This document shows positions 18,880-47,839 of a stretch of 64,000 bases of DNA, piece by piece. Numbering within the stretch: position 1 is the first letter of the stretch; each line of letters opens with the position of its first letter. Both the position numbers and the translations under genes were made by a program. Under the pieces are notes generated by a model. It searched no databases and was not told the origin of the DNA. It saw only the letters and a program-made list of their open reading frames with translations. Source of the stretch: an uncultured Chitinophagaceae bacterium (GTDB taxonomy: Bacteria; Bacteroidota; Ignavibacteria; UBA10030; UBA8401). The stretch lies in NCBI GenBank assembly GCA_964355925.1, contig CAYHFN010000012.1:11949-75948 (forward strand), read 5' to 3'.

Positions 18880-18886
18880 TTTCATA

Positions 18887-31590: not shown

Positions 31591-31749
31591 CGGACGAATA
31601 GTCGATCAATCATAGTTGATAAAAATTCTGAGTCAACAGAATCGTGTTGTGCAGTAATTGCTCTCTAGCGTTTTGTTAAACCTTCTCAACCTACACCAGA
31701 TTTCTCATTTCCCGAACCAAATACGCTTGTTTTCGATATCATTTTTTTC

Positions 31750-31778
31750 TTGACTCTACGGTTTGGCAAGTCTATATT
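31750..31778 (+). promoter_or_regulatory. candidate sigma-70-type promoter of the M20/cyanophycinase operon
   Basis: TTGACT, a 17-nt spacer, then TATATT, about 50 nt upstream of the ATG at 31829, within a 238-bp intergenic region. Confidence 0.35.
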
Positions 31779-31828
31779 TATCGTGAAACAAGTTTCTCAT
31801 AAACGATATATAAAGAGAATTTAATTAC

Positions 31829-32944
31829 ATGAAAACCCCTCTTGTTGATCTCTTCCTAAATGCAATAAAGGTAGATTCACAATCGCTAAACGAACAGGCA
31901 ATGGCACGTTATGTTCGCGAGACATTGTACGATTTTCCGGTAACGATAACAGAAGACGGAACCGGTAAAAAAATTAATGGCAATACAGGAAATCTCATCT
32001 GTGTGCCGGAACATTTCAATCAGGGTGAACCTGCAATTGCCTTGTTTGCACACCTCGACACTCCTCGTTCGACAAAAAATGTCTCACCACGTGTTACCGA
32101 CACCATGATCACAAGCGATGGAACGACGATCCTCGGTGTTGACAATAGGGCGGGAACATCAATACTCTTGAATCTTTTGCAAAATAGTTCGAACAATAAA
32201 TTCAATGCAAACTTCATCGTTGTCTTCACCGTTGCCGAAGAGATCGGATTATTCGGTTCAATGCATGTCGATCTCACACCATACAATGTGAAAATGGGAT
32301 TTGTTTTTGATTGTTCGAAAAGACCCGGTACGTTCATCCGTGCAGCAGTAGGATGTTCGTTGTATCAATCTGCATTTATCGGCAAATCCTCCCACGCAGC
32401 AGTCGCTCCTGAGCAAGGAATAAATTCCATACACATTGCAGCCAAGGCTTTAAGTAAGATTCAGATCGGACGTCATTCATCATCGATGACATCGAACATT
32501 GGGATGATTTCCGGAGGAGAAGCAACAAATGTTGTTCCTGACCGATGTCTTGTGGAAGGTGAAGTACGTTCATTCGATCCCGCTGCAATTGATAAGCATC
32601 TGGATGAATTGGAAGCACTATTTAATAATGTTGCAAAAGAAAACGGCGGTACTATTGAGTTTGCATCAAAGATAGATTTTGCGCCGTTCTCGCTTTCTCA
32701 GGATGACCAGGTAATGAAAGTAACATCGAAAGTTCTTCAGCACATCGGTCTGACACCAAATCCCATAGAGTATGTTGGCGGAAGTGATGCAAACATGCTC
32801 AATGCCAAAGGGATCCCGACGGTGAATCTCGGCATCGGTGCTCAGAAACCGCACTCGAATGAAGAATTTATTCTTATTGAGGACTTGAAAAAATCAGCAG
32901 AATTTGCTAACGCTCTGATCAATCACAGTGAGTTTGTTGACTAG
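31829..32944 (+). CDS. M20-family metallopeptidase (PepT/dipeptidase-like), cytoplasmic
   Basis: No signal peptide. Metal and catalytic motifs are AHLDT, DNRAG and AEEIGLFGS, plus a C-terminal GGSDAN. Confidence 0.7.
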   Translation: MKTPLVDLFLNAIKVDSQSLNEQAMARYVRETLYDFPVTITEDGTGKKINGNTGNLICVPEHFNQGEPAIALFAHLDTPRSTKNVSPRVTDTMITSDGTTILGVDNRAGTSILLNLLQNSSNNKFNANFIVVFTVAEEIGLFGSMHVDLTPYNVKMGFVFDCSKRPGTFIRAAVGCSLYQSAFIGKSSHAAVAPEQGINSIHIAAKALSKIQIGRHSSSMTSNIGMISGGEATNVVPDRCLVEGEVRSFDPAAIDKHLDELEALFNNVAKENGGTIEFASKIDFAPFSLSQDDQVMKVTSKVLQHIGLTPNPIEYVGGSDANMLNAKGIPTVNLGIGAQKPHSNEEFILIEDLKKSAEFANALINHSEFVD

Positions 32945-32954
32945 CCAAAAAATT

Positions 32955-33830
32955 ATGAAAAAAGTACATCTGGTCTTTTTACTCTTTTTGCTGCTGACTG
33001 TAACAGCTGAGTCTGCTGCACCGAAAGGGCATCTCTTTATTATTGGTGGAGGTAAGCGGTCGCCTGAGATGATGAAACAGTTCGTTGAGTTAGCAGGGGG
33101 ACCGGAAAAAGCCCGGATTGTTGTGTTCCCTATGGCAAGCGGTATCGCTGATACGGTTGGTATTGAACAAACAGCATCATTTCGCGAACTCGGCGCAAAG
33201 AATTCAGAATTTATGATTCTTCGCCATGATCAGGCTGACTCCATCGAATATGTGAATCGTTTGACCGGTGTGACTGGTATTTTCTTTTCAGGAGGAGATC
33301 AATCCCGTTTAACGAAAGCACTTGCCGGAACGGCAGTGCTTCGAAAAATTAAGGAATTGTATACAGCCGGTGCAGTCATTGGTGGAACAAGTGCAGGTGC
33401 AGCAGTGATGAGTGCGATGATGATCACCGGAAAGGAATTGCTGCATCGTGATACGGTGAATGCATACACAGCGATCAAAGCACATAATATAGAAACTGTC
33501 GAAGGTTTTGGATTTATCAGCAATGCAATCGTCGATCAGCATTTCATTAAACGAAAACGCCACAACCGTTTGCTAAGTCTCGTTTTGGAACATCCGCAAC
33601 TTATTGGAATTGGAATTGACGAAGCAACTGCGATTATTGTAAATCCAGACGAAACGTTCACTGTTATCGGAGACGCAACGGTATTGGTTGTTGACGCTAC
33701 GAGATCGACGCAGGTCCGAACAAATACTAAAGGAGATCTCAGTGCCGGAAATATGTCATTGCACTTGTTGATGGCAGGAGACAGCTTTAATTTGAAGAGC
33801 CGAAAAATAATTCCGCGAAAGGTGAAATGA
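32955..33830 (+). CDS. cyanophycinase (peptidase S51, CphB/CphE-type) with Sec signal peptide
   Basis: The start at MKKVHLVFLLFLLLTVTAESA gives a signal peptide. Motifs are LFIIGGG, GIFFSGGDQSRL, the nucleophile motif GGTSAGAAVMS, and VDQHFIKRKRHNRL (DQHF-x2-R-x-R-x2-R). Confidence 0.8.
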   Translation: MKKVHLVFLLFLLLTVTAESAAPKGHLFIIGGGKRSPEMMKQFVELAGGPEKARIVVFPMASGIADTVGIEQTASFRELGAKNSEFMILRHDQADSIEYVNRLTGVTGIFFSGGDQSRLTKALAGTAVLRKIKELYTAGAVIGGTSAGAAVMSAMMITGKELLHRDTVNAYTAIKAHNIETVEGFGFISNAIVDQHFIKRKRHNRLLSLVLEHPQLIGIGIDEATAIIVNPDETFTVIGDATVLVVDATRSTQVRTNTKGDLSAGNMSLHLLMAGDSFNLKSRKIIPRKVK

Positions 33831-35218
33831 AAACAAACAAATCATTCAATACGCTGGTGATGATCTTTTCTGTTGTTACATTGGCGGCTGTTGCAACGTG
33901 GCTTTTGCCCGGTGGTGAATATGCACGCGAGATCAAGAACGGAAAAACGCTTGTCGTTCCAAATTCGTTCACATACATCTCTAGTCAACCACAAGGGATT
34001 GGAGCACTATTAATTTCCCCAATCAAAGGATTTATTCAGGCGGCAAATATCATCGTTTTTTTATTTGTCATCGGCGGCGCATTCATGATCATTCAAAAGA
34101 CCGGAGCAGTTACCGTTTCCGTACAGCGCATGGCGTTCACGTTTTCACAAAAACCGCATTTACAGAAGTTCTTTATTCCAGTGACGATGACCATTTTTTC
34201 GATCGGCGGAGCTATCTTTGGAAGTTCCGAAGAGACATTGCCGTTCATCGTTATCTTCATCATGCTTTCGATTTCGCTCGGATATGATTCGCTCGTCGGA
34301 ACAGCAATTCCATTCCTTGGAACAGCAGCAGGATTTGCCGGATCTGTTCTGAATCCATTCACCGTTGGCATTGCGCAGAGCATTGCGGAACTTCCGCTCT
34401 ATTCCGGGATCGAGTTCAGGATCATCATCTGGTTGATCAGCACCGTTTCCATGATCGTTTTCGTATCTCGATACGCTTCCAAAGTGAAAGCCGATCCAAC
34501 AAAAAGCTTGGTGTATGATCTCGATCAGGAGCGAAAGCAGTCGCTGCATCTCGTCAACAATACTTTGATAGCTTTTACGCGATCACATGGTTATGTCCTA
34601 CTCACATTCGGAGCCGCCATGATTTTTCTCATTGTCGGCATTCTAAAATTTGGGTGGTACATCAATGAGATCGGAGCGCTCTTTTTAGGACTTGGCATCG
34701 TTTGCGGATTCATGGGGAAATTATCACTGACAGAAATGACAGACGGCTTTCGTGAAGGTGCGCGTGATATGGTCGGCGTTGCGTTGATCATCGGCTGCGC
34801 TCGGGCAATTCTGGTGATTGCCACCGATGGAAAAATTTTGGATCTGATGCTGTATTCACTTGCAAGTATGATCAACGGCCTTCATCCTGTCTTTGCCGCT
34901 CAATCAATGTTCGTGATGCAATGTGTCATCAATTTTTTTGTTCATTCTGCCTCAGGTCAAGCAATGTTGACAATGCCGATCATGGCGCCGCTCGCCGATG
35001 TGGTAGGAATATCCAGACAGATAGCCGTGCTTGCATTTCAATTCGGCGAAGGGTGGATCAATCCGATCTTGCCAACATCGGGTGTGACGATGGGTGTGTT
35101 GGGATTGGCAAATATTTCATGGTCAAAATGGTTCCGCTGGATGCTTCCGGTACAAATTTATTTTTTTGTTGTCGCATTAAGCCTTTTGGCGGTTGCATAC
35201 TTTATCAATTACCAATGA
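33827..35218 (+). CDS. YfcC/DcuC-type (C4-dicarboxylate anaerobic carrier fold) permease
   Basis: 463 aa and polytopic. The N-terminus TWLLPGGEY......VVPNSF.Y....PQGI......PIKGF..AANIIVFLFVIGGAF.IIQKTGA is typical of YfcC. It overlaps the cyanophycinase stop codon by 4 nt. Confidence 0.75.
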   Translation: MKTNKSFNTLVMIFSVVTLAAVATWLLPGGEYAREIKNGKTLVVPNSFTYISSQPQGIGALLISPIKGFIQAANIIVFLFVIGGAFMIIQKTGAVTVSVQRMAFTFSQKPHLQKFFIPVTMTIFSIGGAIFGSSEETLPFIVIFIMLSISLGYDSLVGTAIPFLGTAAGFAGSVLNPFTVGIAQSIAELPLYSGIEFRIIIWLISTVSMIVFVSRYASKVKADPTKSLVYDLDQERKQSLHLVNNTLIAFTRSHGYVLLTFGAAMIFLIVGILKFGWYINEIGALFLGLGIVCGFMGKLSLTEMTDGFREGARDMVGVALIIGCARAILVIATDGKILDLMLYSLASMINGLHPVFAAQSMFVMQCVINFFVHSASGQAMLTMPIMAPLADVVGISRQIAVLAFQFGEGWINPILPTSGVTMGVLGLANISWSKWFRWMLPVQIYFFVVALSLLAVAYFINYQ

Positions 35219-35269
35219 TACCGAAGAGTGATCACTATATTTGAATTTCACCGTAAGGAAAGGGTCTGT

Positions 35270-37816
35270 ATGAGAGAGTCCATTCACTATCTATTTCTTT
35301 CCGTGCTTCTGGTTGTCTCCATCGCTGTTGGCGGCACAACAGGAAAGCTTGCAGGGCGGATTACTGACCGGCAGACAGGCGAAGCGATTGTCGGTGCTAA
35401 TGTGATGATCACATCGGTGAAACCTGCGATCGGCACCGTAACGGATCCGGACGGGTATTATTTTATCATCAACCTACCCCCAGAAAATTATGAAGCCGCC
35501 GTGAGTTTTATCGGATATACACGTGTGACTCAGCGTATCTCGATCAAAGTTGATCAAACGACCGATTTCAATGCTGCCATGGTTTCGGAGACTGTTAAAG
35601 CGGACGAAGTTGTTGTTGTTGGAGAACGCACAGTAATTCAACGTGATCAAAGTTCGACTGTCCAGCGCACAAGTGCGGAAGATCTTTCAGTGATGCCTGT
35701 AAACACCATTGCAGGGGTGCTTCAGCTTCAGACGGGTGTCGTCAACACCGGAGCGTTGCATATTCGCGGTGGACGTGCCGGTGAAGTTGGATATTATCTT
35801 GACGGATATAGGATCGAAGATCCACTATTCAATAATGCTGTTCTGGAGATCAATAACGAAGCGATACAGGAAATGGAACTGTTGTCCGGAACCTTTAACG
35901 CAGAATATGGAAACGCACTTTCAGGAGTGGTGAATGTTGTGACAAAAGAAAATAGCGATCAATACCGCGGACGTCTGCTCTATAAAAGAACGAATGTTGG
36001 GATTGAAGCACCGAGCAATAATTTGAACGAACGTCAAATTGAAGGGACGGTCAGCGGTCCGGTCTGGAGCGATCTTCCTTTAGGATTTTTGATCTCCGGG
36101 AAGAAAGTCGATGCCGATAACTATTATTTTTCGGGATTGACGCAGACAGCGGGTGGTCTTAACAAGACAATAGAATTTTCTAAAAACAAACCTTTTGGAT
36201 TCAATGATCAACTGTCCACAGTTGGGAAACTATCGTGGGTCCCGTTTGGTTCTGCCAAGGTTACGCTTCTTGATAATTATTCAAAACGGAAACGTCGATC
36301 ATACAGTCATTCCATGCGGTTCATTCCAGACAGCACCTACATCACGAATACCGAGAGCAATCTTCTCGGATTGGATTTCCGACATGCACTTTCCAACGAT
36401 CTGTTCTACGATGTTCGCATTTCGTACTATCAATACAGTTATCTGCGCAATGTGGATGGCCGGTCACCCTCTCAATACACACGCGCGTTGTTCACTACAT
36501 TTACGAACACGTTGTTCTATCAGAATATGTCCTCCTCGGTGTATGAAGATCAAAAGACAAAATCTTATTCCTTGAAAGGGGATATGACATGGCAGTTAAA
36601 CAGATTCAACCTTGTTAAAACTGGTATCGAGTTGAAAGCGAACGATCTAGACTACTACTATAATAGTAATCCGGTGAATCCTACCGATCAGATAATCAAC
36701 ATCTATCGGAAGAAACCTTTTGAAGGTGCGGGATATATTCAGGACAAAATTGAATTTGAAACTATCGTTCTGAATCTGGGATTACGATTCGATGCGTTTG
36801 ACGCTGCAACGTCATATCCAAAAGATCCTTTTAATCCCACCAATCCTTCGTTAACGCCGTTGAAAACTGAGATACAATCCATGCTCAGTCCGCGTGTTGG
36901 GATTGCATATCCTGTCCGGGATAATATGGTGTTTCATTTCACGTATGGACAGTTCTTCCAACGACCGGAATATCAAACACTCTATAATAATCTGGAACGA
37001 GCATTTGCAAACCGCGGTACAACATTGTTCGGATCACCAACGCTGGAACCTCAAAAGACTTCGAGCTATGAAATTGGAATCATGACAACGTTGAGTGAGG
37101 GTACCACGACCCAGGTGACATTCTTCAGCAAGAAGATCGAAAACCTGATCGGCGTAGCATGGATCTATCTGCCGCACGCATATGCATTTTATGTCAATGA
37201 AGATTTTGCAACCGTAAAAGGATTTGAATTATCAACAAAGACGAGACTTGAGAATATTTCGTTTGCCGTGAATTATACGTTCTCCGTTGCCAAAGGAAGT
37301 TCGTCATCACAACAAGAACGGTATACGAGTGTCTATAATATTGTCGGCGTTCAATCACTCCGCTTTCTTCCGCTTGATTTTGATCAACGACATACTGCCA
37401 ATGCACAACTTGCACTCGATTTTGGAAAAGACGACGGTCCATTTGGAATATTGCCGGAAGTGTTTGAAAGAACAACATTTAATTTTATTGGACAATATGG
37501 AAGCGGTCTGCCGTACACATTCAATCCTGCACGTTCTATCTATGTGCCGGAACAGAATAATTCCCGTCTCCCCGGAACGTTTACCGTTGATCTATTTGCA
37601 CGAAAGGCGTTTACGTTTGGTCCTGTTCAGTTTGGTGTGTTCTTTGATGTGAGAAATCTGCTTAATCGAAAAAATGTTAACTCCGTCTATTCGGCGACCG
37701 GATCTCCGGTTTTTTCAGGTGACGAATCGGTAAAATCTACTCCCGATTGGCAGCAAGACCCGACAAACTATTCTTCGCCAAGAACAATTTACGTTGGCGT
37801 TGACATTGGATTGTAA
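35270..37816 (+). CDS. TonB-dependent receptor with N-terminal carboxypeptidase-regulatory-like domain
   Basis: I chose the start at MRESIHYLFLSVLLVVSIAVG. GRITD..TGEAIVGANV is CarboxypepD_reg-like. The plug region has VVVVGER...SAEDL and HIRGGRAGEVGYYLDG. A long beta-barrel follows. Confidence 0.8.
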   Translation: MRESIHYLFLSVLLVVSIAVGGTTGKLAGRITDRQTGEAIVGANVMITSVKPAIGTVTDPDGYYFIINLPPENYEAAVSFIGYTRVTQRISIKVDQTTDFNAAMVSETVKADEVVVVGERTVIQRDQSSTVQRTSAEDLSVMPVNTIAGVLQLQTGVVNTGALHIRGGRAGEVGYYLDGYRIEDPLFNNAVLEINNEAIQEMELLSGTFNAEYGNALSGVVNVVTKENSDQYRGRLLYKRTNVGIEAPSNNLNERQIEGTVSGPVWSDLPLGFLISGKKVDADNYYFSGLTQTAGGLNKTIEFSKNKPFGFNDQLSTVGKLSWVPFGSAKVTLLDNYSKRKRRSYSHSMRFIPDSTYITNTESNLLGLDFRHALSNDLFYDVRISYYQYSYLRNVDGRSPSQYTRALFTTFTNTLFYQNMSSSVYEDQKTKSYSLKGDMTWQLNRFNLVKTGIELKANDLDYYYNSNPVNPTDQIINIYRKKPFEGAGYIQDKIEFETIVLNLGLRFDAFDAATSYPKDPFNPTNPSLTPLKTEIQSMLSPRVGIAYPVRDNMVFHFTYGQFFQRPEYQTLYNNLERAFANRGTTLFGSPTLEPQKTSSYEIGIMTTLSEGTTTQVTFFSKKIENLIGVAWIYLPHAYAFYVNEDFATVKGFELSTKTRLENISFAVNYTFSVAKGSSSSQQERYTSVYNIVGVQSLRFLPLDFDQRHTANAQLALDFGKDDGPFGILPEVFERTTFNFIGQYGSGLPYTFNPARSIYVPEQNNSRLPGTFTVDLFARKAFTFGPVQFGVFFDVRNLLNRKNVNSVYSATGSPVFSGDESVKSTPDWQQDPTNYSSPRTIYVGVDIGL

Positions 37817-37857
37817 AATATTTGGAAGAGCCTTCTTTATAAAGGAGAAAGAGATTT

Positions 37858-39819
37858 ATGAAATACAAACATATAATTTTTATCACGATGATGTTTGGTT
37901 GTGCAACGATACTGCCGGCGCAGCTGCGCATCGATGCCCGGGAACAAAGGGTTGGTCAACCATTAGTCCAACCTGCGCTACCGATTGACCGCGCACAGAA
38001 CGTCATCAACATCAATCAGTTAGGTCAAGTAGTGACGAACATGGGGCAGTGGCATCCGTATACCGGAACATTTCCACGAGGCAGATGGCCGATTAATACA
38101 AGCCATGATCAATTATACAAGATGACTTTTGCTGTTGGCATACCGTATAGCGGAATTAACGGTGCCAATGTTGCAAATGCCCGCGGGAATGGAACAAAGG
38201 AATGGGATCCTGTGAGCGGAAATAATAATCCAGCCGTCGGTAAGATCGCTTTAAGCACGGATAAGACCACATGGCCGATCGGAACGAATGGCCAGCCGTA
38301 TTGGCCCGTTCGAACCTTTGATGGAAAAGATAGCATCGTGTCGCAGCAGGATTCCTACTGTGTCTATCGTGATAATACCAATGCACAACCGGTCAAATTG
38401 AACATTCAGGTTACGCAGACAAGTTATGCGTGGAGCACATCTAAAGATCAGGATTATATTGTCTGGAAATTGGAAATATTTAACGATACGACTGCCGCGA
38501 AAGATAGTCTGTATTTTGGATTGTATTATGATTTCGATGGTGGTGGAATCTCGAATGAATTTGATGACGATTACTATGTGTGGGATCCAATCCATCAGTT
38601 CACCTATGTTATTGATGCACCGGGGAACACTGGTTGGGAGATCGGCTCCGTACCATTTGCGTTGGGATTGCATTTTTTAGAAACACCAAAAGTGAATGCG
38701 AGCGGACACCTCGATCCGAATGGAACACGAATGGGAATAACGGACTGGCATTGGTCGGGTGTCTATAGTTCTGCCTGGGGGGATAACGTAGCTGACGATA
38801 CAATTTTCTATGGTTGGATGAGCAGCAGTGAGAGACTTAGAGTAAATACTTCACGGCCGACATTGTTTCATGGCTCTGATCGCCGGATTGATAATTGGAG
38901 GCTTCAAGATACTATTACAGGTAATCAAGCAGGTGGCGATGGTGTTGATGGTGTTGTGGCAAGCGGTCCATATCATATGGAGTCGGGTGAGAAAATGACA
39001 TTCATCTTTGCGCAAATAGCCGGACCCGGTGCGGGTCCCGGAACTCCTGATGTGTCTCGACTTTATAAAACTGTAGAGCGGGTCGATTCTGTGTATGCAC
39101 ATAATTTATCCCTCATCCCCCCTCCAAAACCAACGGTGAAGTTTACAGCATTGGACAGCAAAATAAAGTTGACATGGAGTAACGATAAAGAATTGGCATA
39201 TATAGTTCCGGCGACCGGGAAGTCGGCTGTGTTGGAATATCGTGTTTATAAAACAACCGATCCAAGTCGAAATATATGGGGCTCACCGTATGCTGTCATT
39301 CGAAGAGATACTACAAAAACGACCGTTGATCCGATCGCATACCAATGGCAGGATTCGGCAACGACCACGAACTATTTCTATTATTCCTATGCTGTCACAT
39401 CATTTGATCTTGACAGCATTGAATCCGGGAAAGCATTTCTGCCGGCAGATTCAACCAAATTTGAAAATGTCGTTGAAGCAAGGCCAGTGAATTCGCCAAG
39501 AACATCACTCAATGATATTAAGGTTGTTCCTAATCCCTATGTCATCTCCGCTACGTGGGAACGAAAACGATTGGGAGATCCAAAACTGGGTGAACCGATC
39601 AGGGATCTTGCGTTTACAAATCTTCCGGCACAATGCACGATCAGTATTTATACGCTCGATGGAAATTTGGTAAAGACGATAGAACATTCCAATGGAGTAG
39701 GTACGGAGTTTTGGGACTTACGCACATTTTCAAATCAACTCGTCGCAACCGGAATTTATTTCTATCATGTGAAATCATCGATTGGGGAAAGAGTCAGCAA
39801 ATTTGCAGTTGTTCGATAA
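37858..39819 (+). CDS. secreted protein of unknown function with T9SS-CTD/FlgD-Ig-like C-terminus
   Basis: The signal sequence is MKYKHIIFITMMFGCATILPAQ. I recognised no family for the roughly 550-aa body. The C-terminus is VVPNPYVI...CTISIYTLDGNLVKTIEH...FWDLR......TGIYFYHVKS. Confidence 0.5.
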   Translation: MKYKHIIFITMMFGCATILPAQLRIDAREQRVGQPLVQPALPIDRAQNVININQLGQVVTNMGQWHPYTGTFPRGRWPINTSHDQLYKMTFAVGIPYSGINGANVANARGNGTKEWDPVSGNNNPAVGKIALSTDKTTWPIGTNGQPYWPVRTFDGKDSIVSQQDSYCVYRDNTNAQPVKLNIQVTQTSYAWSTSKDQDYIVWKLEIFNDTTAAKDSLYFGLYYDFDGGGISNEFDDDYYVWDPIHQFTYVIDAPGNTGWEIGSVPFALGLHFLETPKVNASGHLDPNGTRMGITDWHWSGVYSSAWGDNVADDTIFYGWMSSSERLRVNTSRPTLFHGSDRRIDNWRLQDTITGNQAGGDGVDGVVASGPYHMESGEKMTFIFAQIAGPGAGPGTPDVSRLYKTVERVDSVYAHNLSLIPPPKPTVKFTALDSKIKLTWSNDKELAYIVPATGKSAVLEYRVYKTTDPSRNIWGSPYAVIRRDTTKTTVDPIAYQWQDSATTTNYFYYSYAVTSFDLDSIESGKAFLPADSTKFENVVEARPVNSPRTSLNDIKVVPNPYVISATWERKRLGDPKLGEPIRDLAFTNLPAQCTISIYTLDGNLVKTIEHSNGVGTEFWDLRTFSNQLVATGIYFYHVKSSIGERVSKFAVVR

Positions 39820-39838
39820 GAACGAAAAGGGAAATATT

Positions 39839-40855
39839 ATGAAGACACTACTGAAGAGATCTATCACAGTGACGGCGCTGTTTGCATGCATCTGCGCAGT
39901 CTCCTTTGCACAAGGATTCAGCAATGTTGGATTCGCTGGTGCCAATTTCTTGAAAATACCCGCTGAACCGGTTGGTGCAGCGCTTGGAAATTCCATTGTT
40001 GCCTCTGCCACCGGTATCCAGGGATTGTTCTGGAATCCGGGTGCTATTGCAAGCACAGAAGGTACGGAGATTCTCTTTTCCCGGATGAATTGGATCAGTG
40101 ATACTCGTATTTCATATCTCGGGGTTGCACAACGTCTTGGTCCCGGCACAATCGGTCTCAGTATGACAGCACTGACGATGGATGAGATGGAGATCACAAC
40201 AGAAACACAGCCGAACGGGACCGGAACATATTTCAATGCCGGCAGTTATGCAGCCGGACTCTCGTATGGATTGAAGATTATCGACCGGTTTAGTTTTGGT
40301 GCAACAGTAAAATATATCTACGAATATATCTGGGATACACACGGCTCCACGTATGCATTCGATCTAGGTTCTATCTACGTCACGAATTTTTATAATATGA
40401 GGATTGGAATGAGGCTGGCGAATTTCGGTGGTGATGTCACATTCACCGGAGCGCCGATCGATAAAAAACCGGCAACAATCGCACAGTCAGGAATTTCCTA
40501 TTCGTACGATCCTCGTCTTGAACGTGTCTCCAAGGAATATCCGCTGCCGCAGTTCTTCAACGCCGGTATCTCCATCGATCCTCTGACGATGGAAGGACAT
40601 AAATTGACATTAACGGTCGCTGTCACCGATCCGAATGACAACAATACACAAATGCAATTCGGTGGAGAATATGTCTTGCAGGATATGTTCATATTGCGCG
40701 CTGGATACAAATCAGGTTATGATGAACAAGATCTTAGTATGGGGCTCGGCGTTAATGTGAATGTGAGTGGAATTACCACCGGCATCGATTTTGGGTACAG
40801 TACGTTTGGTCAACTAGGCAGCGTGAGCGCGCTCAGTCTGCGGATAGGGTTGTAG
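39839..40855 (+). CDS. PorV/PorQ-family (FadL-like) outer-membrane beta-barrel protein
   Basis: I chose the start at MKTLLKRSITVTALFACICAVSFAQ. GFAGANFLKIPAEPVGAALGNS.VA.A.G..GLFWNPGAIA is the characteristic PorV/PorQ N-terminal segment. The barrel pattern continues to the end of the protein. Confidence 0.65.
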   Translation: MKTLLKRSITVTALFACICAVSFAQGFSNVGFAGANFLKIPAEPVGAALGNSIVASATGIQGLFWNPGAIASTEGTEILFSRMNWISDTRISYLGVAQRLGPGTIGLSMTALTMDEMEITTETQPNGTGTYFNAGSYAAGLSYGLKIIDRFSFGATVKYIYEYIWDTHGSTYAFDLGSIYVTNFYNMRIGMRLANFGGDVTFTGAPIDKKPATIAQSGISYSYDPRLERVSKEYPLPQFFNAGISIDPLTMEGHKLTLTVAVTDPNDNNTQMQFGGEYVLQDMFILRAGYKSGYDEQDLSMGLGVNVNVSGITTGIDFGYSTFGQLGSVSALSLRIGL

Positions 40856-40945
40856 TGTTCATTCAACCGATTTTTGTAAAATAGTTTTTATCAATTAATC
40901 ATTGCAGTATTCATTATTTAATCCATTCACTTAAGGGAGGGTACA

Positions 40946-42844
40946 ATGAAATCTCGTTCACTTTTTTGGTTCACCGTACTATGCAGTATGGTTCTTATAC
41001 TAACTACGGGAGTCTTTGCACAAAATATTACAGGGACAAAGATAATCGGTACAGGAGGTGATTATGCAACACTGGCAGCAGCCATTACTGCTTTGAACAC
41101 CAACCATGCTTCCGGTGCAGTAACGTTTCTGATCAATGGTGATTTGACCGAAACTGGCGGTCTCGAGATCACCGATACCGCACTGGTCGGCGGAAACAGT
41201 CTCGTCATTAAACCGAATACGGGGAAGACACCTGCGGTGACCTTCACGACGGTTGCCACTTCCGGAAACAAAGGAAACGCAGGCTTCACGATTACCGGTA
41301 ATTCTATAAGTATGGGAAGTGTCGGTAATGTTACGATCGACGGTTCGAACACTGCAAACGGAACAACTCAGGATATGACATTTGCGATGGGTGATACAAC
41401 GAATGGACGCTACGTTATCCGATTGAGCGGAAATACCGATAATGTTATGATTAAGAATCTCAAAATTCCGGGAACAGGTGTGAAGTCAGCCCTAGCATCC
41501 GGATCCAGAACGTATGGTATCAACTGTTTGGCAATGGCTTCCGGTGCGGCAGACAATTTGACGATTTCCAATTGTGTGATAGGATCGAGTGCTGCTGCGT
41601 GCTATTATGGTTTGTATAAACCGGACGGTGGCACGGTTCCGGCAGGTAAAGGATTAGTAATATCCAAGAATACGATATTTGCACAACATAAGGGTATGAA
41701 TATCTGGTATGCTGAAGGTACAACCAACATTAATAACAATACAATTTCCATTATCGGTTCTCAGAAAGGATATGTTCAAAATTCTGTAAATGCGATCTAT
41801 ATTGAAGCGTGGTCAGGAATATGTAATATATTCAATAACAACCTTATCACTTTGAAGGCTAGTGCCTTTGGTCAAACGGCCCTTAGACCGCTCTATGGAA
41901 TTCTTCTCTATAATCCCTCTGGCGAAGCACCTGCTGGTCAAACTGCAAACGTGTATAATAATTTTATCAGCGATTTCTATTATATTGGGGATGCGACCAC
42001 GTATCCATCTGAAATCAATGGGATAGCAATTGATGCCTATGGACAAACCGTGAATGTTTTTTTTAATACTATCTATATGAATAAAACAAATATAACATCC
42101 AACCCGGTCTATGGCATTCGCATCTATGATGATTCCCTTCAAACAGCAAATCTGAAAAACAATATTATTGTCAACACTGTAGATTTTGATAGTGCCTATG
42201 CAATTTATCGTGGTACGAATGCAACAAACAGTACGTTTACCTCGGATTATAATGACCTTGTTGTTACCGGTGCAAATGCAAATATTGGGAATCATAACGG
42301 CGTGAAGAGTAAAACACTTGCAAATTGGCAGACAGCATCGGGTAAGGATGCCAACAGTAAAAGTGTCAATCCTGCAAATCCGTTTGGAGGAGCAGGTCAA
42401 TTAAAAAGCGTTACAGATTTGCATTGGGTCTCTGCTGCATCCAATGTTTTTGCCGGTACGCCGATCGTTGGTTATACAACGGATATCGATGGTGATACCC
42501 GAAATGCGACAAAACCATATATGGGTGCTGATGAAGCCGGAACAATGACGATCGTTGGCCAAGGACAATCAGTGTCACCATTTGAATATTCGCTTGGACA
42601 AAATTATCCTAATCCGTTTAATCCATCAACGGAGATTTCTTTCCAACTCAAAACAAATGCATTTACTTCCGTGCGCGTGTATGATGCTCTTGGACGGGAA
42701 GTCTCAACAATGGTGAATGAATATCTGTTGGCGGGTTCACACACTGTGAAGTTCTCTGCTCATAATCATGCAAGCGGAGTGTATCTGTATCGTTTGATCT
42801 CCGGATCGTTCAGCGAAACCAAACGAATGATTCTAGTAAAATAA
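40946..42844 (+). CDS. secreted right-handed beta-helix (pectin-lyase-fold-like) protein with T9SS C-terminal domain
   Basis: It has a signal peptide and repetitive N/G/T/I-rich turns (NVTIDGSN, VMIKNLKI, LTISNCVI, NNNTISI, NIFNNNLI, NVYNNFIS, LKNNIIV). The C-terminus is QNYPNPFNPSTEISF...VYDALGREV...GVYLYRL. Confidence 0.6.
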   Translation: MKSRSLFWFTVLCSMVLILTTGVFAQNITGTKIIGTGGDYATLAAAITALNTNHASGAVTFLINGDLTETGGLEITDTALVGGNSLVIKPNTGKTPAVTFTTVATSGNKGNAGFTITGNSISMGSVGNVTIDGSNTANGTTQDMTFAMGDTTNGRYVIRLSGNTDNVMIKNLKIPGTGVKSALASGSRTYGINCLAMASGAADNLTISNCVIGSSAAACYYGLYKPDGGTVPAGKGLVISKNTIFAQHKGMNIWYAEGTTNINNNTISIIGSQKGYVQNSVNAIYIEAWSGICNIFNNNLITLKASAFGQTALRPLYGILLYNPSGEAPAGQTANVYNNFISDFYYIGDATTYPSEINGIAIDAYGQTVNVFFNTIYMNKTNITSNPVYGIRIYDDSLQTANLKNNIIVNTVDFDSAYAIYRGTNATNSTFTSDYNDLVVTGANANIGNHNGVKSKTLANWQTASGKDANSKSVNPANPFGGAGQLKSVTDLHWVSAASNVFAGTPIVGYTTDIDGDTRNATKPYMGADEAGTMTIVGQGQSVSPFEYSLGQNYPNPFNPSTEISFQLKTNAFTSVRVYDALGREVSTMVNEYLLAGSHTVKFSAHNHASGVYLYRLISGSFSETKRMILVK

Positions 42845-42847
42845 ATT

Positions 42848-43738
42848 GTGGAAAGAACTATGACATCATCGAACATCGGAAAGCAAAGCGATTTTGACCT
42901 GAATAAGTTGATACAGGAAAAGTATCCTTTGCTTTCCGAGCAGCAACGCAAAGTTGCAGATTTTCTTCTTCAAAATTTGCGTGATGTTCCATTCTATTCT
43001 GTTGTTGAACTGGGAAAAAAATGCGGGGCGAGTAAAGCAACTGTTGTTCGCCTCGCGCAGGAACTGGGGCTTTCAGGATTTCAGGAATTACGGTCAAAAC
43101 TGCTGGAAGGAGTTCAATCCGAGATACGAATGAAAGACAAATTCTCATTGATCCATAAATCGGATCATAAAGAAGCTCTTACTATGGTCGCACAGCAGGA
43201 TGTAAAGAACATCAATCAAACGATCAATCACCTCGATAAAAAGGTTTTCCATGAGGTGTGTGATACGATCTTGAAGGCATCTCATGTTTATACCGTTGGA
43301 TTGGGTATTTCCTATTTGATGTCCCAGATCCTTGCATACTCACTCAATCAGGCGGCGGTCCGTTCGACACCGCTTGTGCATGACTACAAAACCTTTGTTG
43401 AGCAGATAAAATTTCTGACAACGAAAGATGTACTGATCGCATTATCGTTTCCGCCGTATTCCAAGGAGACCATCGATGCGGTAAAATATGCATCGCAGAA
43501 AAAGATACCGGTCATTGCCATTACCGATAAATTGACGTCACCAATCACTTTTTATTCGTACAAGGTAATTCCGGTGCGAAGTCAGAATTTGAACTTTACA
43601 AACTCATTTTCAGCGATCTCGGTGATCATCAATGCAATTGCCACCGAGCTTTCAATGTGCAACGAAAAAAAGGCTTTGCAGAATCTCGAAGAGATCAATT
43701 CAAAACTTGAAGAAACAGGGCATTATAATGTTGAATGA
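42848..43738 (+). CDS. MurR/RpiR-family transcriptional regulator (HTH_6 + SIS domain)
   Basis: LSEQQRKVADFLLQN......SV.ELGKKCGASKATVVRLAQELG.SGF.ELR is the HTH region, followed by a SIS domain. The start could instead be the internal Met at 42860. Confidence 0.8.
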   Translation: MERTMTSSNIGKQSDFDLNKLIQEKYPLLSEQQRKVADFLLQNLRDVPFYSVVELGKKCGASKATVVRLAQELGLSGFQELRSKLLEGVQSEIRMKDKFSLIHKSDHKEALTMVAQQDVKNINQTINHLDKKVFHEVCDTILKASHVYTVGLGISYLMSQILAYSLNQAAVRSTPLVHDYKTFVEQIKFLTTKDVLIALSFPPYSKETIDAVKYASQKKIPVIAITDKLTSPITFYSYKVIPVRSQNLNFTNSFSAISVIINAIATELSMCNEKKALQNLEEINSKLEETGHYNVE

Positions 43739-43781
43739 ATTCAGGTTCTTTAACTACACATTGCATTGAGGATAATATTAA

Positions 43782-45806
43782 ATGAAGAACAATGTGCTCT
43801 CTCGATGGATTAAAGTATTGTTTTCAATCATACTTCCGATTGTGAGTGCAGCGCAAGGTTCAGTATTGCTTGTAGGTGGAGGGAGTGAAAATTACAACGA
43901 TTGGTCCGACGTACCGTACCGGTGGATGGTCGACCACGTGCCGAACAAAAAAATTCTTGTGATGCATTACTCCAGCGGGTCGACTTGGTTGGAAGGATAT
44001 TTTAAATCGCTCGGTGCAGTTTCAGCTACAAGTTTTGTCGTTGCTTCTACCTCAGCCGCAAATGACTCCGCTGCTTATAAAACAATTCTTGCAGCAGACG
44101 GAATATTTCTGCGCGGAGGCGATCAATATCAGTATATCAGCAGATGGAAAGGGACGCTGACCGAAAAAGCGATTCGAGAAGTATATCAACGCGGCGGGGT
44201 GATCGGCGGATCGAGTGCTGGTGAAGCGGTACTAAGCCAGGTTATTTTTGATGCTCGTGTTGCTTCCACTGATCCTCGTAACGCACTCCGGAATCCTCTT
44301 TCATCAGGAATCACATTTACAGAAGATTTTCTTGGTTTTGCTTCCGGTATACTTGCAGACACTCATTTTTATGAACGGGGAAGACTGGGTCGATTGCTTG
44401 CAATGATTGCTGTCTATAAATCGCAGACCGGAAAAGAGATCACCGGAGTCGGCGTTGACTATAACACAGCGTTGGCAATTTCGTCTGATGGTGTTGGAGA
44501 AGTGATGGGTTCGGGAACGGTTACGATTCTCCGTTTCTCACCAGCCACGCAATATGTTTTGGAGCCAGGTAAACCATTATCAATGTCAAATGTTCGGCTT
44601 GATCAATTGACGAAAGGATTCAAGTTCAACATATTGACCGGAAATATTTTAGTTCCGGCAACGGCAGTGTCATTCCAACCCAAAAGTGTAAATACATCAG
44701 CACAATCTATAATGCTTGATGGAAGCGGTCGAATCGCAGATTGGTTCTCTGTCTCCGGAAGTTTGAAAAAATTGGTGGCCCTGGTTCCAAATTCAACGGA
44801 CACTATTGGTATTTTCGCTTCGCCCGTTTCGGCATCGATCGCCTCGAGCATTGACTCATGTTTGAAACACTGGAATGTACCATCTCGATTTTTGTGGATC
44901 GATGAAGCTCGAAAGAATGATCCCGCGCTGTCGGTTAATATTGAAGGTTGCGCAGCATTTGTCTTAGCCGGTAATAATGGCGACAGTATTTCGCGATTGC
45001 TCAATGCTTCAACAACGGCAGGAATTTCTCTTTTCTCAAAATTTTCAAACGGCAAACCCGCGCTCTTCCTCGGCAATGATGGGATTGTAGCGTCGGAAAA
45101 CGGAGTGGGACAGATTGAAAAGAATATTTACGGCGCATATTATGGATACATGACACTCATTCAAGGAATTGGAACTCTCCAGGGAATTTCTGTCATCCCC
45201 CGATTATATGAAAATTCCGATTACATCGACAATAGGGCGAGCGGACTTTTTTGGGGATTGGGAAAATCACACAATACTTTTGGTATTTTACTTGATGCCG
45301 GTTCATATGTTTCTGTGACAAATAAAAACATGCAGGTGTTTGGTCCAACACCGGCAATGATCATCGATGCCCGAGCAGTGCGTATCGTGGATTTTCCAAC
45401 ATGGAAAGATCCGGGCAAAGCAAATCCGCGACAGAATGTGGCGCTGATCGGAGCGATGATCCATGTGCTGCGCGAGACGGAGGTGTTTGATCTAAGCTAT
45501 CTATCGGAAGTGAGGATCGATAAAATGAAAAACGATATTCCGAATGAATTCTCGTTATCACAAAATTATCCTAATCCATTTAACCCGACGACGAATTTTA
45601 TGTTTTCACTGCCTCAGCGCGGCGTTGTCACGGTAAGAATATTCGATATTCTTGGAAAAGAGATATTGACTCTGCTGAACCAGGAAAAAGCAGCGGGAAA
45701 GTATCGAATGACATTTGATGGGTCGCAGTTTGCGTCCGGAGTCTATCTTTATCGATTGCAGACCGGAAGTACCATCAACACAAAGAGGATGGTGTTGTTG
45801 AAATGA
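43782..45806 (+). CDS. T9SS-sorted cyanophycinase-like S51 peptidase with a second, degenerate S51-like domain
   Basis: It has a signal peptide. Domain 1 has LLVGGGS, GIFLRGGDQYQY, GGSSAGEAVLS and DTHFYERGRLGRL (R-x-R-x2-R kept). Domain 2 has the parallel segments IMLDGSG, AFVLAGNNGDSI, LFLGNDGIVAS (no Ser-Ala-Gly nucleophile) and IPRLYENSDYIDNR. The C-terminus is QNYPNPFNPTTNFMF...IFDILGKEI...GVYLYRL. Confidence 0.7.
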   Translation: MKNNVLSRWIKVLFSIILPIVSAAQGSVLLVGGGSENYNDWSDVPYRWMVDHVPNKKILVMHYSSGSTWLEGYFKSLGAVSATSFVVASTSAANDSAAYKTILAADGIFLRGGDQYQYISRWKGTLTEKAIREVYQRGGVIGGSSAGEAVLSQVIFDARVASTDPRNALRNPLSSGITFTEDFLGFASGILADTHFYERGRLGRLLAMIAVYKSQTGKEITGVGVDYNTALAISSDGVGEVMGSGTVTILRFSPATQYVLEPGKPLSMSNVRLDQLTKGFKFNILTGNILVPATAVSFQPKSVNTSAQSIMLDGSGRIADWFSVSGSLKKLVALVPNSTDTIGIFASPVSASIASSIDSCLKHWNVPSRFLWIDEARKNDPALSVNIEGCAAFVLAGNNGDSISRLLNASTTAGISLFSKFSNGKPALFLGNDGIVASENGVGQIEKNIYGAYYGYMTLIQGIGTLQGISVIPRLYENSDYIDNRASGLFWGLGKSHNTFGILLDAGSYVSVTNKNMQVFGPTPAMIIDARAVRIVDFPTWKDPGKANPRQNVALIGAMIHVLRETEVFDLSYLSEVRIDKMKNDIPNEFSLSQNYPNPFNPTTNFMFSLPQRGVVTVRIFDILGKEILTLLNQEKAAGKYRMTFDGSQFASGVYLYRLQTGSTINTKRMVLLK

Positions 45807-45841
45807 TGCCATTCAAGATAAACTCATCTTATGAATACCAC

Positions 45842-45875
45842 AATGATCCAAAGAAACTTTTTGGATCATTTTTTT
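45842..45875 (+). terminator. rho-independent terminator closing the S51/T9SS gene set
   Basis: aatgatccaaa-gaaactt-tttggatcatt forms an 11-bp stem, followed by a T-run. Confidence 0.6.
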
Positions 45876-45953: not shown

Positions 45954-46871
45954 GTGAAATCCCATGATTTTTTGACTATTCGTGATCTCAATAAAGAAGA
46001 AATGCACGAAACATTTACAATCGCACGAGACATGAAAACTGATCGCAGCAAATACGCAGAAGCATTGAAAGGTAAAACGCTTGCTCTCATTTTCGAAAAG
46101 CCGTCGTTAAGAACCCGCACCTCGTTCGATGTTGGAATCCAGCAATTAGGTGGATTCTCACTCTACTTATCTCCTGCCGAAATCAGTCTTGGCAAACGGG
46201 AATCCATCCACGATGTAGCAAAAAATCTGGAACGGATGGTACAGGGTATCATGATCAGGACGTTCGCACATCAGATCGTGATCGATATGGCAAAATATGC
46301 CTCCATTCCTGTCATCAATGGATTGACCGATTATTCACATCCATGTCAAGCAATGGCAGATTTTCTAACGATCCTTGAAAAGAAAAAGAAACTTGAAGGA
46401 TTAAAACTTTCGTATGTAGGTGATGGCAATAATGTTGCTCACTCATTGATGTTTGCCGGTGCTCGACTCGGTGTGAATGTAACGATTGTCTGTCCTCCGG
46501 ATTTCAAACCAAATGCCACAGCATTGCAACAATCGGTGGAAGATGCAAAAGCAACCGGTGCAGTGATCGAAGTGGTGCATGATCCGGCTATAGGAGTGAA
46601 AAATGCTGATGTGGTGTACACCGATACGTGGGCATCGATGGGACAGGAAAGTGAAGCTGAAGCACGGAAAAAAATATTTGCACCGTATCAGGTGAACAAG
46701 AAACTGATGTCCTATGCAAAAACCGATGTACTCTTTATGCATTGTCTGCCTGCGCATCGTAATGAAGAAGTGACCGATGAAGTCATTGATTCACCTCAGT
46801 CTGTTGTCTTCGATGAAGCGGAAAACCGACTTCATGTGCAAAAAGCAATCATGTATCAGTTAATGAAATAA
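45954..46871 (+). CDS. argF: ornithine carbamoyltransferase
   Basis: GTG start after aaggaa. Motifs are FEKPSLRTRTSF, HPCQ, DGNNV, DTWASMG and HCLPA. Whether it acts catabolically (arcB) or anabolically (argF) cannot be told from the sequence. Confidence 0.9.
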   Translation: MKSHDFLTIRDLNKEEMHETFTIARDMKTDRSKYAEALKGKTLALIFEKPSLRTRTSFDVGIQQLGGFSLYLSPAEISLGKRESIHDVAKNLERMVQGIMIRTFAHQIVIDMAKYASIPVINGLTDYSHPCQAMADFLTILEKKKKLEGLKLSYVGDGNNVAHSLMFAGARLGVNVTIVCPPDFKPNATALQQSVEDAKATGAVIEVVHDPAIGVKNADVVYTDTWASMGQESEAEARKKIFAPYQVNKKLMSYAKTDVLFMHCLPAHRNEEVTDEVIDSPQSVVFDEAENRLHVQKAIMYQLMK

Positions 46872-46876
46872 TCAGT

Positions 46877-47818
46877 ATGAAAAAAACAGCGTTGATTGCA
46901 ATTGGCGGAAATTCACTGATCCGTGCCGGAGAGCGCGGCACAATTGATGAGCAGTTGAAAAATGCCCATGCGACGGCACGATGCATTGTTCAGATGGTGG
47001 CTCAAGGATGGCGCATTGTCATTACGCATGGCAACGGGCCACAGGTAGGTGCTGCGTTGATGAGATCTGAGCGAGCTGCCAGCGATGTGTACACACATCC
47101 GCTTGATGTCTGTGTCGCAACCACACAAAGTGAGATCGGGTACATCATTCAACGGGCGATGGAATTTGAATTGCGGGAGATTGGGTTGTTGACGCCGGTG
47201 ATGACTGTGTTGACTCAAGTAAAAGTTGATGAGAACGACCCTGCATTTACGAATCCAACAAAACCGATCGGTCCGTTCTATTCAAAGTCGGATGCGGAAG
47301 AAAAACAACGAACGCTCGGCTGGCACATTATTGAAGACGCTGCGCGTGGATATCGGCGCGTTGTTCCATCTCCCGAACCGGTCGAAGTGTTCGAACAGGA
47401 GATTATACGGAAGATCCTCGATCTGAATATGATCGTTATCGCTGTCGGCGGCGGCGGAATACCCGTTATCGAGCGCGAAAAATATCTTGTGATCGGCAGT
47501 GAAGCGGTGATCGATAAGGATCGTGCATCTGCTCTTCTTGCAACCGGATTGGGTGTTGACCTTTTTATTATCAGTACCGATGCTGAGAAAGTGTGTATCG
47601 ATTTTAAGAAACCAACACAATATGGAATAGATACCGCTACCGCAGATGAAATGCAGAAGCTCTATGATCAGGGACAGTTTCCAGCAGGAAGTATGGGACC
47701 CAAGGTTCAATCTGCTATCCGGTATCTGCGAAACGGCGGGAAAAAAGTTATCATTACATCGTACGAATTTTTAATGGATGCGTTGGACGGTAAAGCAGGA
47801 ACGCGTATTGTTCTATAA
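46877..47818 (+). CDS. arcC: carbamate kinase
   Basis: 313 aa. Motifs are ALIAIGGNSL, ITHGNGPQVG, GGGGIPV, AVIDKD and P.GSMGPKV. Confidence 0.9.
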   Translation: MKKTALIAIGGNSLIRAGERGTIDEQLKNAHATARCIVQMVAQGWRIVITHGNGPQVGAALMRSERAASDVYTHPLDVCVATTQSEIGYIIQRAMEFELREIGLLTPVMTVLTQVKVDENDPAFTNPTKPIGPFYSKSDAEEKQRTLGWHIIEDAARGYRRVVPSPEPVEVFEQEIIRKILDLNMIVIAVGGGGIPVIEREKYLVIGSEAVIDKDRASALLATGLGVDLFIISTDAEKVCIDFKKPTQYGIDTATADEMQKLYDQGQFPAGSMGPKVQSAIRYLRNGGKKVIITSYEFLMDALDGKAGTRIVL

Positions 47819-47839
47819 TATTATTGGAGTGAGCAAACC

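Follow-up and report, generated by a model that had tools for sequence, protein, structure and literature searches.

We examined a 64-kb stretch of DNA (hereafter the window) on contig CAYHFN010000012.1, from an uncultured bacterium of the Ignavibacteria lineage UBA8401, in which two genes for S51 serine peptidases of the cyanophycinase type lie within a string of nine co-directional genes (31829-45806, forward strand). Open reading frame (ORF) listing combined with Pfam and NCBIfam scans placed all nine where a preliminary description of this DNA, made from the letters alone, had located them, with gaps of 0-90 nt between neighbors. The terminator that had been reported to follow the string is there too. 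Several of the products carry C-terminal tails for the type IX secretion system (T9SS). The locus and its flank read as follows.

31750-31778 (+): sigma-70-like promoter, TTGACT-17-TATATT, 5′ of the M20 gene
31783-31829 (+): two degenerate operator-like palindromes, between the -10 box and the M20 start codon
31829-32944 (+): M20 (PepT-like) metallopeptidase, cytoplasmic, without signal peptide (TIGR01883); candidate beta-Asp-Arg dipeptidase
32955-33830 (+): S51 cyanophycinase-type serine peptidase, 291 aa, periplasmic, with Sec signal peptide (TIGR02069 and motifs)
33827-35218 (+): YfcC/DcuC-family inner-membrane permease (DcuC and YfcC models)
35228-37816 (+): TonB-dependent receptor, not of the SusC/RagA type (CarboxypepD_reg, Plug, and barrel domains)
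37858-39819 (+): 653-aa orphan surface protein with beta-sandwich, FN3, and atypical T9SS C-terminal domain (no Pfam family; AlphaFold2 model)
39839-40855 (+): PorV/PorQ-family outer-membrane barrel, a locus-specific paralogue (NF033709)
40946-42844 (+): 632-aa secreted protein with type-A T9SS C-terminal domain (tail matches)
42848-43738 (+): RpiR/MurR-family regulator, HTH_6 and SIS domains (Pfam and NCBIfam scans)
43782-45806 (+): 674-aa cell-surface S51 enzyme with type-A T9SS tail (S51 profile, AlphaFold2 model, tail)
45842-45870 (+): intrinsic terminator, a 13-bp stem followed by a T run, closing the operon (sequence)
45954-51459 (+): ornithine and carbamoyl-phosphate genes, separately transcribed, adjoining the operon on its 3′ side

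The nine-gene string is a real, conserved, and functionally coherent operon. The evidence presented below supports the view that it is a dedicated, co-transcribed system for uptake and degradation, organized around two S51 enzymes that act in two compartments, one at the cell surface through T9SS and the other in the periplasm.

Two S51 enzymes carry the catalytic serine and arginine pocket of CphB

The ORF of the small S51 enzyme opens at a GTG at 32928, and its likely start is the ATG at 32955, yielding a 291-aa protein whose N terminus, MKKVHLVFLLFLLLTVTAESA, is a Sec-type signal. This protein scores 191.9 bits on TIGR02069, the NCBIfam cyanophycinase equivalog model (cut-off 126.6), and 27 bits on the PepE model. 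The Sec signal and the motifs GGG, GGDQ, GTSAGA, and DQHF-x2-R-x-R-x2-R (here DQHF-IK-R-K-R-HN-R), all noted in the preliminary description, were recovered, as was the overlap of the stop codon by the permease gene, whose ATG overlaps it by 4 nt. GGDQ, GTSAGA, the DQHF-x2-R-x-R-x2-R segment, and IDEAT align residue by residue with CphB of Synechocystis. CphB reportedly uses a Ser132/His174/Glu201 triad and a pocket formed by Gln101, Asp172, Gln173, Arg178, Arg180, and Arg183. The small enzyme has equivalents of this full set.

The large S51 protein consists of a signal peptide, a CphB-like catalytic domain (residues ~25-297), a second domain (residues ~300-578), and the type-A T9SS tail that had been predicted for it (residues 596-671; 43.3 bits on TIGR04183, cut-off 23). 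On TIGR02069 it scores 111.8 bits as a full protein and 106 bits for the N-terminal domain alone, with no match to PepE. Thus, when both proteins are compared with the two family models, as the preliminary description had proposed, the small enzyme passes the cyanophycinase cut-off, the large one misses it, and neither falls in the PepE family.

The family of the large enzyme includes >300 full-length homologues. Across 37 large-S51 homologues, Ser145 (the nucleophile), His195, Arg199, Arg201, Arg204, and Gln115 (of GGDQ) are invariant, and Asp193 is either Asp or Glu. Asp226, one residue before the column aligned to CphB Glu201, is Asp in 35 of the 37 and Glu in 2, and may stand in for the acidic triad residue. 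When an AlphaFold2 model of the large enzyme (pLDDT 87.7) was compared with known structures using Foldseek, the CphB and pseudo-CphB structures were matched with E values of 1e-17 to 1e-19 and template modeling (TM) scores, normalized to the target, of 0.78-0.84; the match to PepE was far weaker (E 1e-9). Structural comparison with CphB, which had been suggested as a check on both S51 proteins, thus bears out the assignment of the large enzyme to this fold. Both S51 proteins are far closer to CphB than to PepE.

Like CphB and CphE (S51; PDB 3EN0 and 7UQW), the window enzymes have the fold, the GxSxG nucleophile, the D-x-H-F histidine, the GGDQ glutamine, and the R-x-R-x2-R pocket. Unlike them, the large enzyme extends to 674 aa by an additional conserved domain of ~280 aa and the T9SS tail. 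This second domain (window 44679-45515) is conserved in the large-S51 family and has neither the Ser nor the His; searched against Pfam and against PDB sequences, it gave no match. An hhalign comparison of the second with the first domain gave a weak alignment (E 0.079) that is nonetheless in register. The second domain is probably a degenerate S51 copy, and possibly serves as an internal pseudo-dimer partner.

A receptor outside the SusC family is encoded beside an orphan protein and a PorV/PorQ-family barrel

The TonB-dependent receptor has an N-terminal CarboxypepD_reg domain followed by Plug and barrel domains. On TIGR04056 (SusC/RagA) it reaches 70 bits against a cut-off of 368, through its N-terminal 120 residues only, and no SusD-family match was detected in any protein of the locus in Pfam and NCBIfam scans. 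The earlier reading of the locus as lacking SusC and SusD therefore holds.

The gene that follows the receptor encodes the 653-aa orphan. We detected 114 members of its family, which fall into two size classes and have no Pfam domain; for the window protein, described earlier as of unknown family, Pfam and NCBIfam likewise identified no family and gave only weak matches to the tail. Its all-beta AlphaFold2 model (pLDDT 77) comprises a beta-sandwich, an FN3 domain, and a C-terminal sandwich, and a Foldseek search of the PDB found no structural relative above a TM score of 0.27. The T9SS-like C terminus ascribed to this protein proved borderline: of the models for type-A T9SS tails (TIGR04183 and PF18962), TIGR04183 gave 23.4 bits at a cut-off of 23, and the Pfam match was sub-threshold. 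Members of the family match the type-B CHU_C model as often as the type-A Por_Secre_tail model. The T9SS tail of the orphan is atypical.

The barrel encoded next to the orphan belongs to the NF033709 subfamily (181 bits, cut-off 90) and fails both equivalog models, with 57 bits against 250 for PorV and 75 against 220 for PorQ. Its PDB match is PorV (6H3I, E 2.5e-5). In the T9SS of Porphyromonas, PorQ holds PorZ and PorV holds PorU, and in Flavobacterium, cargo with a type-B C-terminal domain requires a cognate PorP/SprF-like partner encoded next to it. The window resembles these pairs in that a gene for cargo with an atypical C-terminal domain lies directly beside a gene for a PorV/PorQ-family barrel and that this adjacency is kept across loci. 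It differs from them in that the barrel is outside the PorV and PorQ equivalogs and the PorP/SprF family, and in that the pair, known here from its genes, is part of a nutrient-uptake operon and adjoins a TonB-dependent receptor gene. From the strict adjacency of the genes, we propose that the barrel may tether the 653-aa protein next to the receptor, where this protein would act as a partner that binds substrate.

The 632-aa protein was described earlier as a beta-helix T9SS cargo. Its T9SS tail is clear (TIGR04183, 41 bits, cut-off 23), but single-sequence and six-sequence-profile searches of the PDB and Pfam scans of six family members returned the tail only, leaving the beta-helix unsupported.

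An M20 peptidase is a candidate beta-Asp-Arg dipeptidase

The M20 protein has no signal peptide, consistent with the cytoplasmic location first assigned to it. It scores 251 bits on TIGR01883, below the cut-off of 274, and its PDB matches are the PepT-like structures 3GB0 and 3RZA, with a weak match to the poly(aspartic acid) hydrolase 7LJH. In a scan seeded with the M20 protein, the small S51 gene lay directly 3′ of the M20 gene in 39 of the 54 metagenome contigs that had room for it. More distant M20 paralogues (47-51% identity) adjoin deacetylase genes instead. No linkage between the M20 subfamily and cphA was seen among 80 metagenome loci.

We infer from this setting that beta-Asp-Arg is the substrate of the M20 enzyme. 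Because beta-aspartyl-arginine is an N-acyl amino acid, as are the substrates of DapE and ArgE, this role is chemically reasonable. Since, according to Sharon et al. (2023; PMC10206079), the isoaspartyl dipeptidases of Firmicutes and Bacteroidota have yet to be discovered, there is also room for it. The enzyme would share with the beta-Asp-Arg dipeptidases CphZ/AotO, IadA, and IaaA (PMC9974463; PMC10206079) the last, cytoplasmic step and, in cphA-less genomes, the grouping of its gene with that of a cyanophycinase; it differs in being M20 and PepT-like, a family unreported for beta-Asp-Arg hydrolysis. The permease scores 332.8 bits on the DcuC model and 376.6 bits on the YfcC model, which is named "putative basic amino acid antiporter" and has a cut-off of 500.

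The locus is conserved across phyla

When a single genome was scanned for each GTDB species, we obtained 76 loci (designated by L numbers), labeled mostly as Ignavibacteriota, with some from KSB1, "Candidatus Zhuqueibacter," Bacteroidota, and Cytophagia metagenome-assembled genomes (MAGs). We counted gene presence by tblastn of the window proteins against the 43 loci, from Ignavibacteriota, KSB1, Calditrichota, and Bacteroidota, in which 8 kb or more of sequence precedes the large S51 gene. The receptor was found in 34 of these (orthologues 34-78% identical), as was the orphan, which was always paired with it. A PorV-like barrel was present in 31 loci and adjoined the orphan gene in 31 of 34 cases, RpiR was present in 31, YfcC in 23, and the 632-aa cargo in 10. 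In 31 of the 43 loci, receptor, orphan, and barrel all lay upstream of the large S51 gene, so that the synteny across Ignavibacteria and Bacteroidota that the preliminary description had thought worth surveying is substantial. Protein identity across phyla is 30-50%, and across these loci it is often just 28-40%. Gene order is conserved far beyond chance, and the block is not fortuitous.

Gene calls on contigs found through the large or the small S51 revealed a canonical order: M20, small S51, YfcC, a ~380-aa T9SS protein, RpiR, receptor, an 820-930-aa orphan, PorV-like barrel, and large S51. This order also occurs in a Calditrichota genome, and a MAG labeled Melioribacter (L037) carries the full locus. 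The order in the window departs from it. In L005 and L006, the large S51 gene stands alone. In L005, an Ignavibacteriales MAG, the lone gene is followed by one for a 493-aa M14 peptidase (9146-10627); we considered this M14 protein as a CphZ-like enzyme and rejected it, as it is carboxypeptidase-D-like.

Paired palindromes precede the M20 gene

In relatives of the window locus, the otherwise unalignable regions upstream of M20 contain a sigma-70-like promoter followed by two 16-bp TGTAAC-N4-GTTACA palindromes, 30-31 bp apart. We found six such pairs in the fetched loci, all directly 5′ of the M20 gene (L025 754-799, L032 32-78, L033 35-80, L048 76-121, L062 61-106, and L085 8844-8889), compared with 0-4 pairs anywhere in shuffled sequence. 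TTGAC[AT]-N16-17-TA..T boxes occur at the equivalent place in L008, L025, L030, L036, L083, and L085. The window palindromes, at 31783-31798 (core GAAAC-AA-GTTTC) and 31814-31829 (AGAGAATTTAATTACA), are degenerate versions of this pair. The exact motif GAAAC-NN-GTTTC alone is not enriched in the window; only the paired TGTAAC-N4-GTTACA motif 5′ of M20 in relatives is non-random. The paired palindromes are probably a repressor operator, most simply for the RpiR protein of the locus itself.

The closest relative, L007 (MAG UBA8401; large S51 85% identical), is arranged differently. In the segment L007 4380-4570, set against window 31690-31850 and 42760-42870, the same promoter and palindrome are followed immediately by rpiR and the large S51 gene. 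L007 does not have the 11-kb stretch that reaches from M20 to the 632-aa gene, and a mutation has turned the ATG of M20 into ATC. The missing block reflects either a deletion or an assembly difference. The L007 arrangement accounts for the non-canonical position of rpiR in the window.

Ornithine genes recur beside the locus

Downstream of the terminator (45954-51459) are genes for ornithine carbamoyltransferase (OTC), carbamate kinase (CK), an aspartate-carbamoyltransferase-like protein, ornithine aminotransferase (OAT), and a 444-aa protein. This region had been described as an arginine/ornithine/carbamoyl-phosphate operon. The ornithine and carbamoyl genes are as described, but the first arginine-degrading enzyme is absent: the scanned window ORFs include OTC and CK without arginine deiminase, so that there is no arginine deiminase pathway operon (arcA-arcB-arcC). 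Among related loci, OTC/CK or OAT genes flank the locus in L007, L009, L044, and L147, and OAT lies inside the operon in L002/L023 and L016; in all, no fewer than five lineages have OAT or OTC/CK genes within the locus or next to it. The 444-aa protein (50125-51459, forward strand) has faint similarity to cyclic 2,3-diphosphoglycerate synthetase and to the CobW/UreG NTPase region. Its gene travels with OAT in L009 and L044 and may belong to ornithine/arginine metabolism.

Scans of the ORFs of the 64-kb window detected no gene for cphA (as had been stated earlier), SusD, IadA, IaaA, CphZ, or TonB/ExbBD.

A model for scavenging of a cyanophycin-type polymer

On balance, we lean toward a model in which the locus scavenges a cyanophycin-type polymer shed by other microbes, a substrate suggested by the S51 pockets and the gene neighborhood. 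The 674-aa S51 enzyme, whose tail marks it for export by T9SS and display on the cell surface, would cut the polymer there. Going by gene adjacency, the receptor and the 653-aa protein, held by its own PorV/PorQ-family barrel, would capture and import the fragments. The periplasmic 291-aa S51 enzyme would trim imported oligomers to beta-Asp-Arg, the YfcC-family permease would move the dipeptide into the cytoplasm, and the M20 peptidase would split it into Asp and Arg. RpiR would repress the operon through the paired palindromes overlapping the promoter until an effector appears, and products of the neighboring ornithine and carbamoyl-phosphate genes might process the nitrogen and carbon further. 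Of this scheme, the architecture, the localization signals, the catalytic residues, and the synteny are observed; the substrate, the order of action, the tethering, and the assignment of RpiR to the palindromes are inferred. Also in its favor are the conserved position of the palindrome pairs, the adjacency of the M20 and small S51 genes, and the precedent of the Salinivirga locus treated below.

Several observations weigh against this model. The large S51 enzyme scores just below the cyanophycinase cut-off, as given above. In its homologues, the position of CphB Gln173 is Thr, Ser, or Asn (Thr in the window enzyme), and Tyr, Ala, Asp, or Val occupies the variable column that aligns with Glu201. 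The nearest PDB match of both S51 proteins, nearer than Synechocystis CphB, is 7UQV, deposited as "Pseudobacteroides cellulosolvens pseudo-CphB." Because this protein itself scores 313 bits on TIGR02069, membership in that family is no proof of activity on cyanophycin, and the hidden Markov model (HMM) cannot tell true from "pseudo" cyanophycinases. The preliminary description called both S51 proteins cyanophycinases; the Ser/His pair and the three-arginine pocket stand in both, but the sub-threshold score of the large enzyme and the "pseudo-CphB" label of the nearest structure make cyanophycin a probable rather than an established substrate. Further, the small S51 gene is absent in L025, L036, and L145, and the large one in L085. 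Since some loci thus lack one of the two enzymes, the surface-then-periplasm scheme is not obligatory. No arginine deiminase or arginase was found among the scanned window ORFs, though OTC and CK are present. RpiR/SIS regulators normally sense phosphosugars, and one of this type is unexpected for an amino-acid polymer. Finally, the sources of many host MAGs are fens, soils, and sludge, not mats of cyanobacteria.

The main rival explanation, which we consider unlikely but not lightly set aside, retains the machinery and changes the substrate: the S51 enzymes would be "pseudo-cyanophycinases" acting on isoaspartyl or beta-aspartyl peptides of aged protein, on poly(aspartate)-like polymers, or on aspartyl conjugates. 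The HMM-passing "pseudo-CphB" match, the sub-threshold score and altered pocket positions of the large enzyme, and habitats that are not dominated by cyanobacteria all fit this explanation, as do the weak match of the M20 protein to poly(aspartic acid) hydrolase and the activity of S51 enzymes on other aspartyl conjugates mentioned in an excerpt of PMC9239234. However, equivalents of the three pocket arginines and of Gln101 are strictly retained, as is that of Asp172 (Asp or Glu in the large-S51 family). The recurrent linkage to ornithine/arginine genes points to an arginine-rich product, and the YfcC model is named for basic amino acids. As for habitat, genes for cyanophycin synthetase are widespread beyond cyanobacteria, activated sludge included (PMC9974463; excerpt of PMC10687191).

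A second rival has the locus target a glycoconjugate, such as a sugar-amino-acid compound or a glycopeptide. RpiR would then sense a phosphosugar intermediate, the actual depolymerization or binding would fall to the 632-aa and 653-aa cargo proteins, and the role of the S51 and M20 enzymes would be limited to clearing away peptide stubs. In keeping with this idea, RpiR (HTH_6 and SIS) is retained in 31 of the 43 loci, the N-terminal sandwich of the 653-aa model weakly resembles the non-catalytic N-terminal domains of GH94 and GH116 enzymes, and the upstream flank is carbohydrate-related, with a GlcNAc-2-epimerase-like T9SS protein and an NAGPA-like gene. We nevertheless regard it as improbable. 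The structural matches of the 653-aa protein are weak (TM ≤0.27), the conserved block contains no glycoside hydrolase, lyase, kinase, or sugar isomerase in any locus examined, and the core that stays invariant consists of two peptidase families and a permease of the basic-amino-acid type.

Least credible is that the locus has no single function and juxtaposes by chance an M20-S51-YfcC dipeptide module, a receptor/T9SS module, and a stand-alone rpiR and large S51 pair: although the L007 promoter drives rpiR and large S51 directly without the 11-kb block, the window order is unlike the canonical one, and large S51 is alone in several genomes (L005, L006), the full set recurs in Ignavibacteriota, KSB1, Calditrichota, and Bacteroidota, its genes all pointing one way and overlapping or only briefly separated although the proteins are just 30-50% identical, and a single promoter and a single terminator bracket the window string.

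Returning to the scavenging of cyanophycin, a broader claim is possible, and we offer it tentatively. The locus may exemplify a widespread, SusD-independent class of outer-membrane nutrient capture in Ignavibacteriota, KSB1, Calditrichota, and some Bacteroidota, in which a receptor works with a T9SS-exported binding protein from the orphan family (653-930 aa), a dedicated PorV/PorQ-family barrel serving as the tether of that protein; cyanophycin would be fed to it by the tandem (active and degenerate) S51 surface enzyme, and the M20 protein would be the "missing" beta-Asp-Arg dipeptidase of the Fibrobacterota-Chlorobiota-Bacteroidota (FCB) group.

Relation to known cyanophycin and polysaccharide utilization loci

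A cyanophycin locus of Salinivirga is said to be homologous to typical Bacteroidetes polysaccharide utilization loci (PULs), of the SusC/SusD type. The suggestion in the preliminary description that no locus of the present kind had been reported is contradicted by three papers. Sharon et al. (2023; PMC10206079), citing Ben Hania et al. (2017), refer to a "cyanophycin utilization locus" holding genes for cyanophycinase along with iadA and a transporter in Salinivirga cyanobacteriivorans L21-Spi-D4. According to Sorokin et al. (2018; PMC6243061), Salinivirga and Cyclonatronum each possess a plain S51 protein plus another bearing a Por secretion domain. Tang et al. (2012; PMC3400609) describe a TonB-dependent transporter beside a cyanophycinase gene and list cyanophycin among predicted substrates. 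Within the collection of papers searched, none combines cyanophycinase with type IX secretion.

Like the utilization locus described in PMC10206079, the window has clustered S51 genes and transporters with no cphA in 64 kb; it has no iadA or iaaA, and an M20 PepT-like gene occupies that place. Compared by description only, the window and the Salinivirga locus share scavenging without cphA, two S51 proteins of which one is plain and one Por-tailed, a transporter, a dipeptidase (in the window a candidate), and presumed PUL-like uptake of a poly-amino-acid. They differ in that Salinivirga has iadA, and reportedly SusC/SusD-type genes, whereas the window lacks SusC, SusD, and IadA and has instead a non-SusC receptor, the 653-aa orphan T9SS protein, a PorV/PorQ-family barrel, M20, and RpiR.

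The window also resembles the SusC/SusD PULs of Bacteroidota in its presumed division of labor, with a surface enzyme, TonB-dependent import, periplasmic trimming, a permease, a cytoplasmic hydrolase, and its own regulator, and its receptor likewise has an N-terminal CarboxypepD_reg domain. In contrast to these PULs, there is no SusD, the receptor is not SusC/RagA, the partners depend on T9SS and are not lipoproteins, and the substrate is probably a poly-amino-acid. Thus, a PUL-like cyanophycin locus with a Por-tailed S51 (2017) and the adjacency of receptor and cyanophycinase genes (2012) were already known. Distinct here are the lack of SusC and SusD, the pairing of an orphan protein with a PorV-like barrel, M20 in the place of IadA, RpiR with a putative operator, and the breadth of conservation outside Bacteroidota.

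Other genes in the window

Just upstream of the locus are genes for a GlcNAc-2-epimerase/GH127-like protein with a T9SS tail (26310-28202, forward strand) and for an 811-aa fusion of a beta-propeller with a phosphoesterase of the acid phosphatase/phospholipase C type (28325-30760, forward strand). Farther upstream, 22157-25481 (reverse strand) holds a DUF1800/DUF1501 pair, the DUF1501 protein having a T9SS C-terminal sorting domain. A large region for cell-envelope polysaccharide biosynthesis (4459-21470) encodes a YfhO-like protein, a WbsX glycosyltransferase, methyltransferases, a DegT aminotransferase, a PIG-L deacetylase, hexapeptide acyltransferases, and a GH130-like protein.

Beyond the ornithine genes, a 389-aa ORF (51518-52687, reverse strand) contains two complete adenylate kinase domains in tandem, matched by several Adk models, an unusual fusion. 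It is followed by a phosphate-related cluster (52730-63865) with a sigma-54 two-component pair, a phosphonate-type binding protein, a CYTH protein, a Na/sulfate-type symporter, a PhoU-like gene, a PHO4 transporter gene, a phosphate-selective porin, and a lamin-tail-domain protein.

Implications

A large store of fixed nitrogen resides in cyanophycin, and little is known of how organisms that do not produce it exploit it. The locus offers testable candidates for this process: a tandem S51 surface enzyme, a T9SS-tethered receptor partner, and a dipeptidase, the last made concrete by the M20 gene that lies directly beside S51 in most contigs with close relatives. The conserved trio of receptor, orphan, and PorV-like barrel points to a way in which FCB bacteria that lack SusD might use T9SS to assemble complexes for capture at the surface. 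If the model is true, the PUL concept would extend to poly-amino-acids, and also to the phyla dominant in fens, sediments, and sludge.

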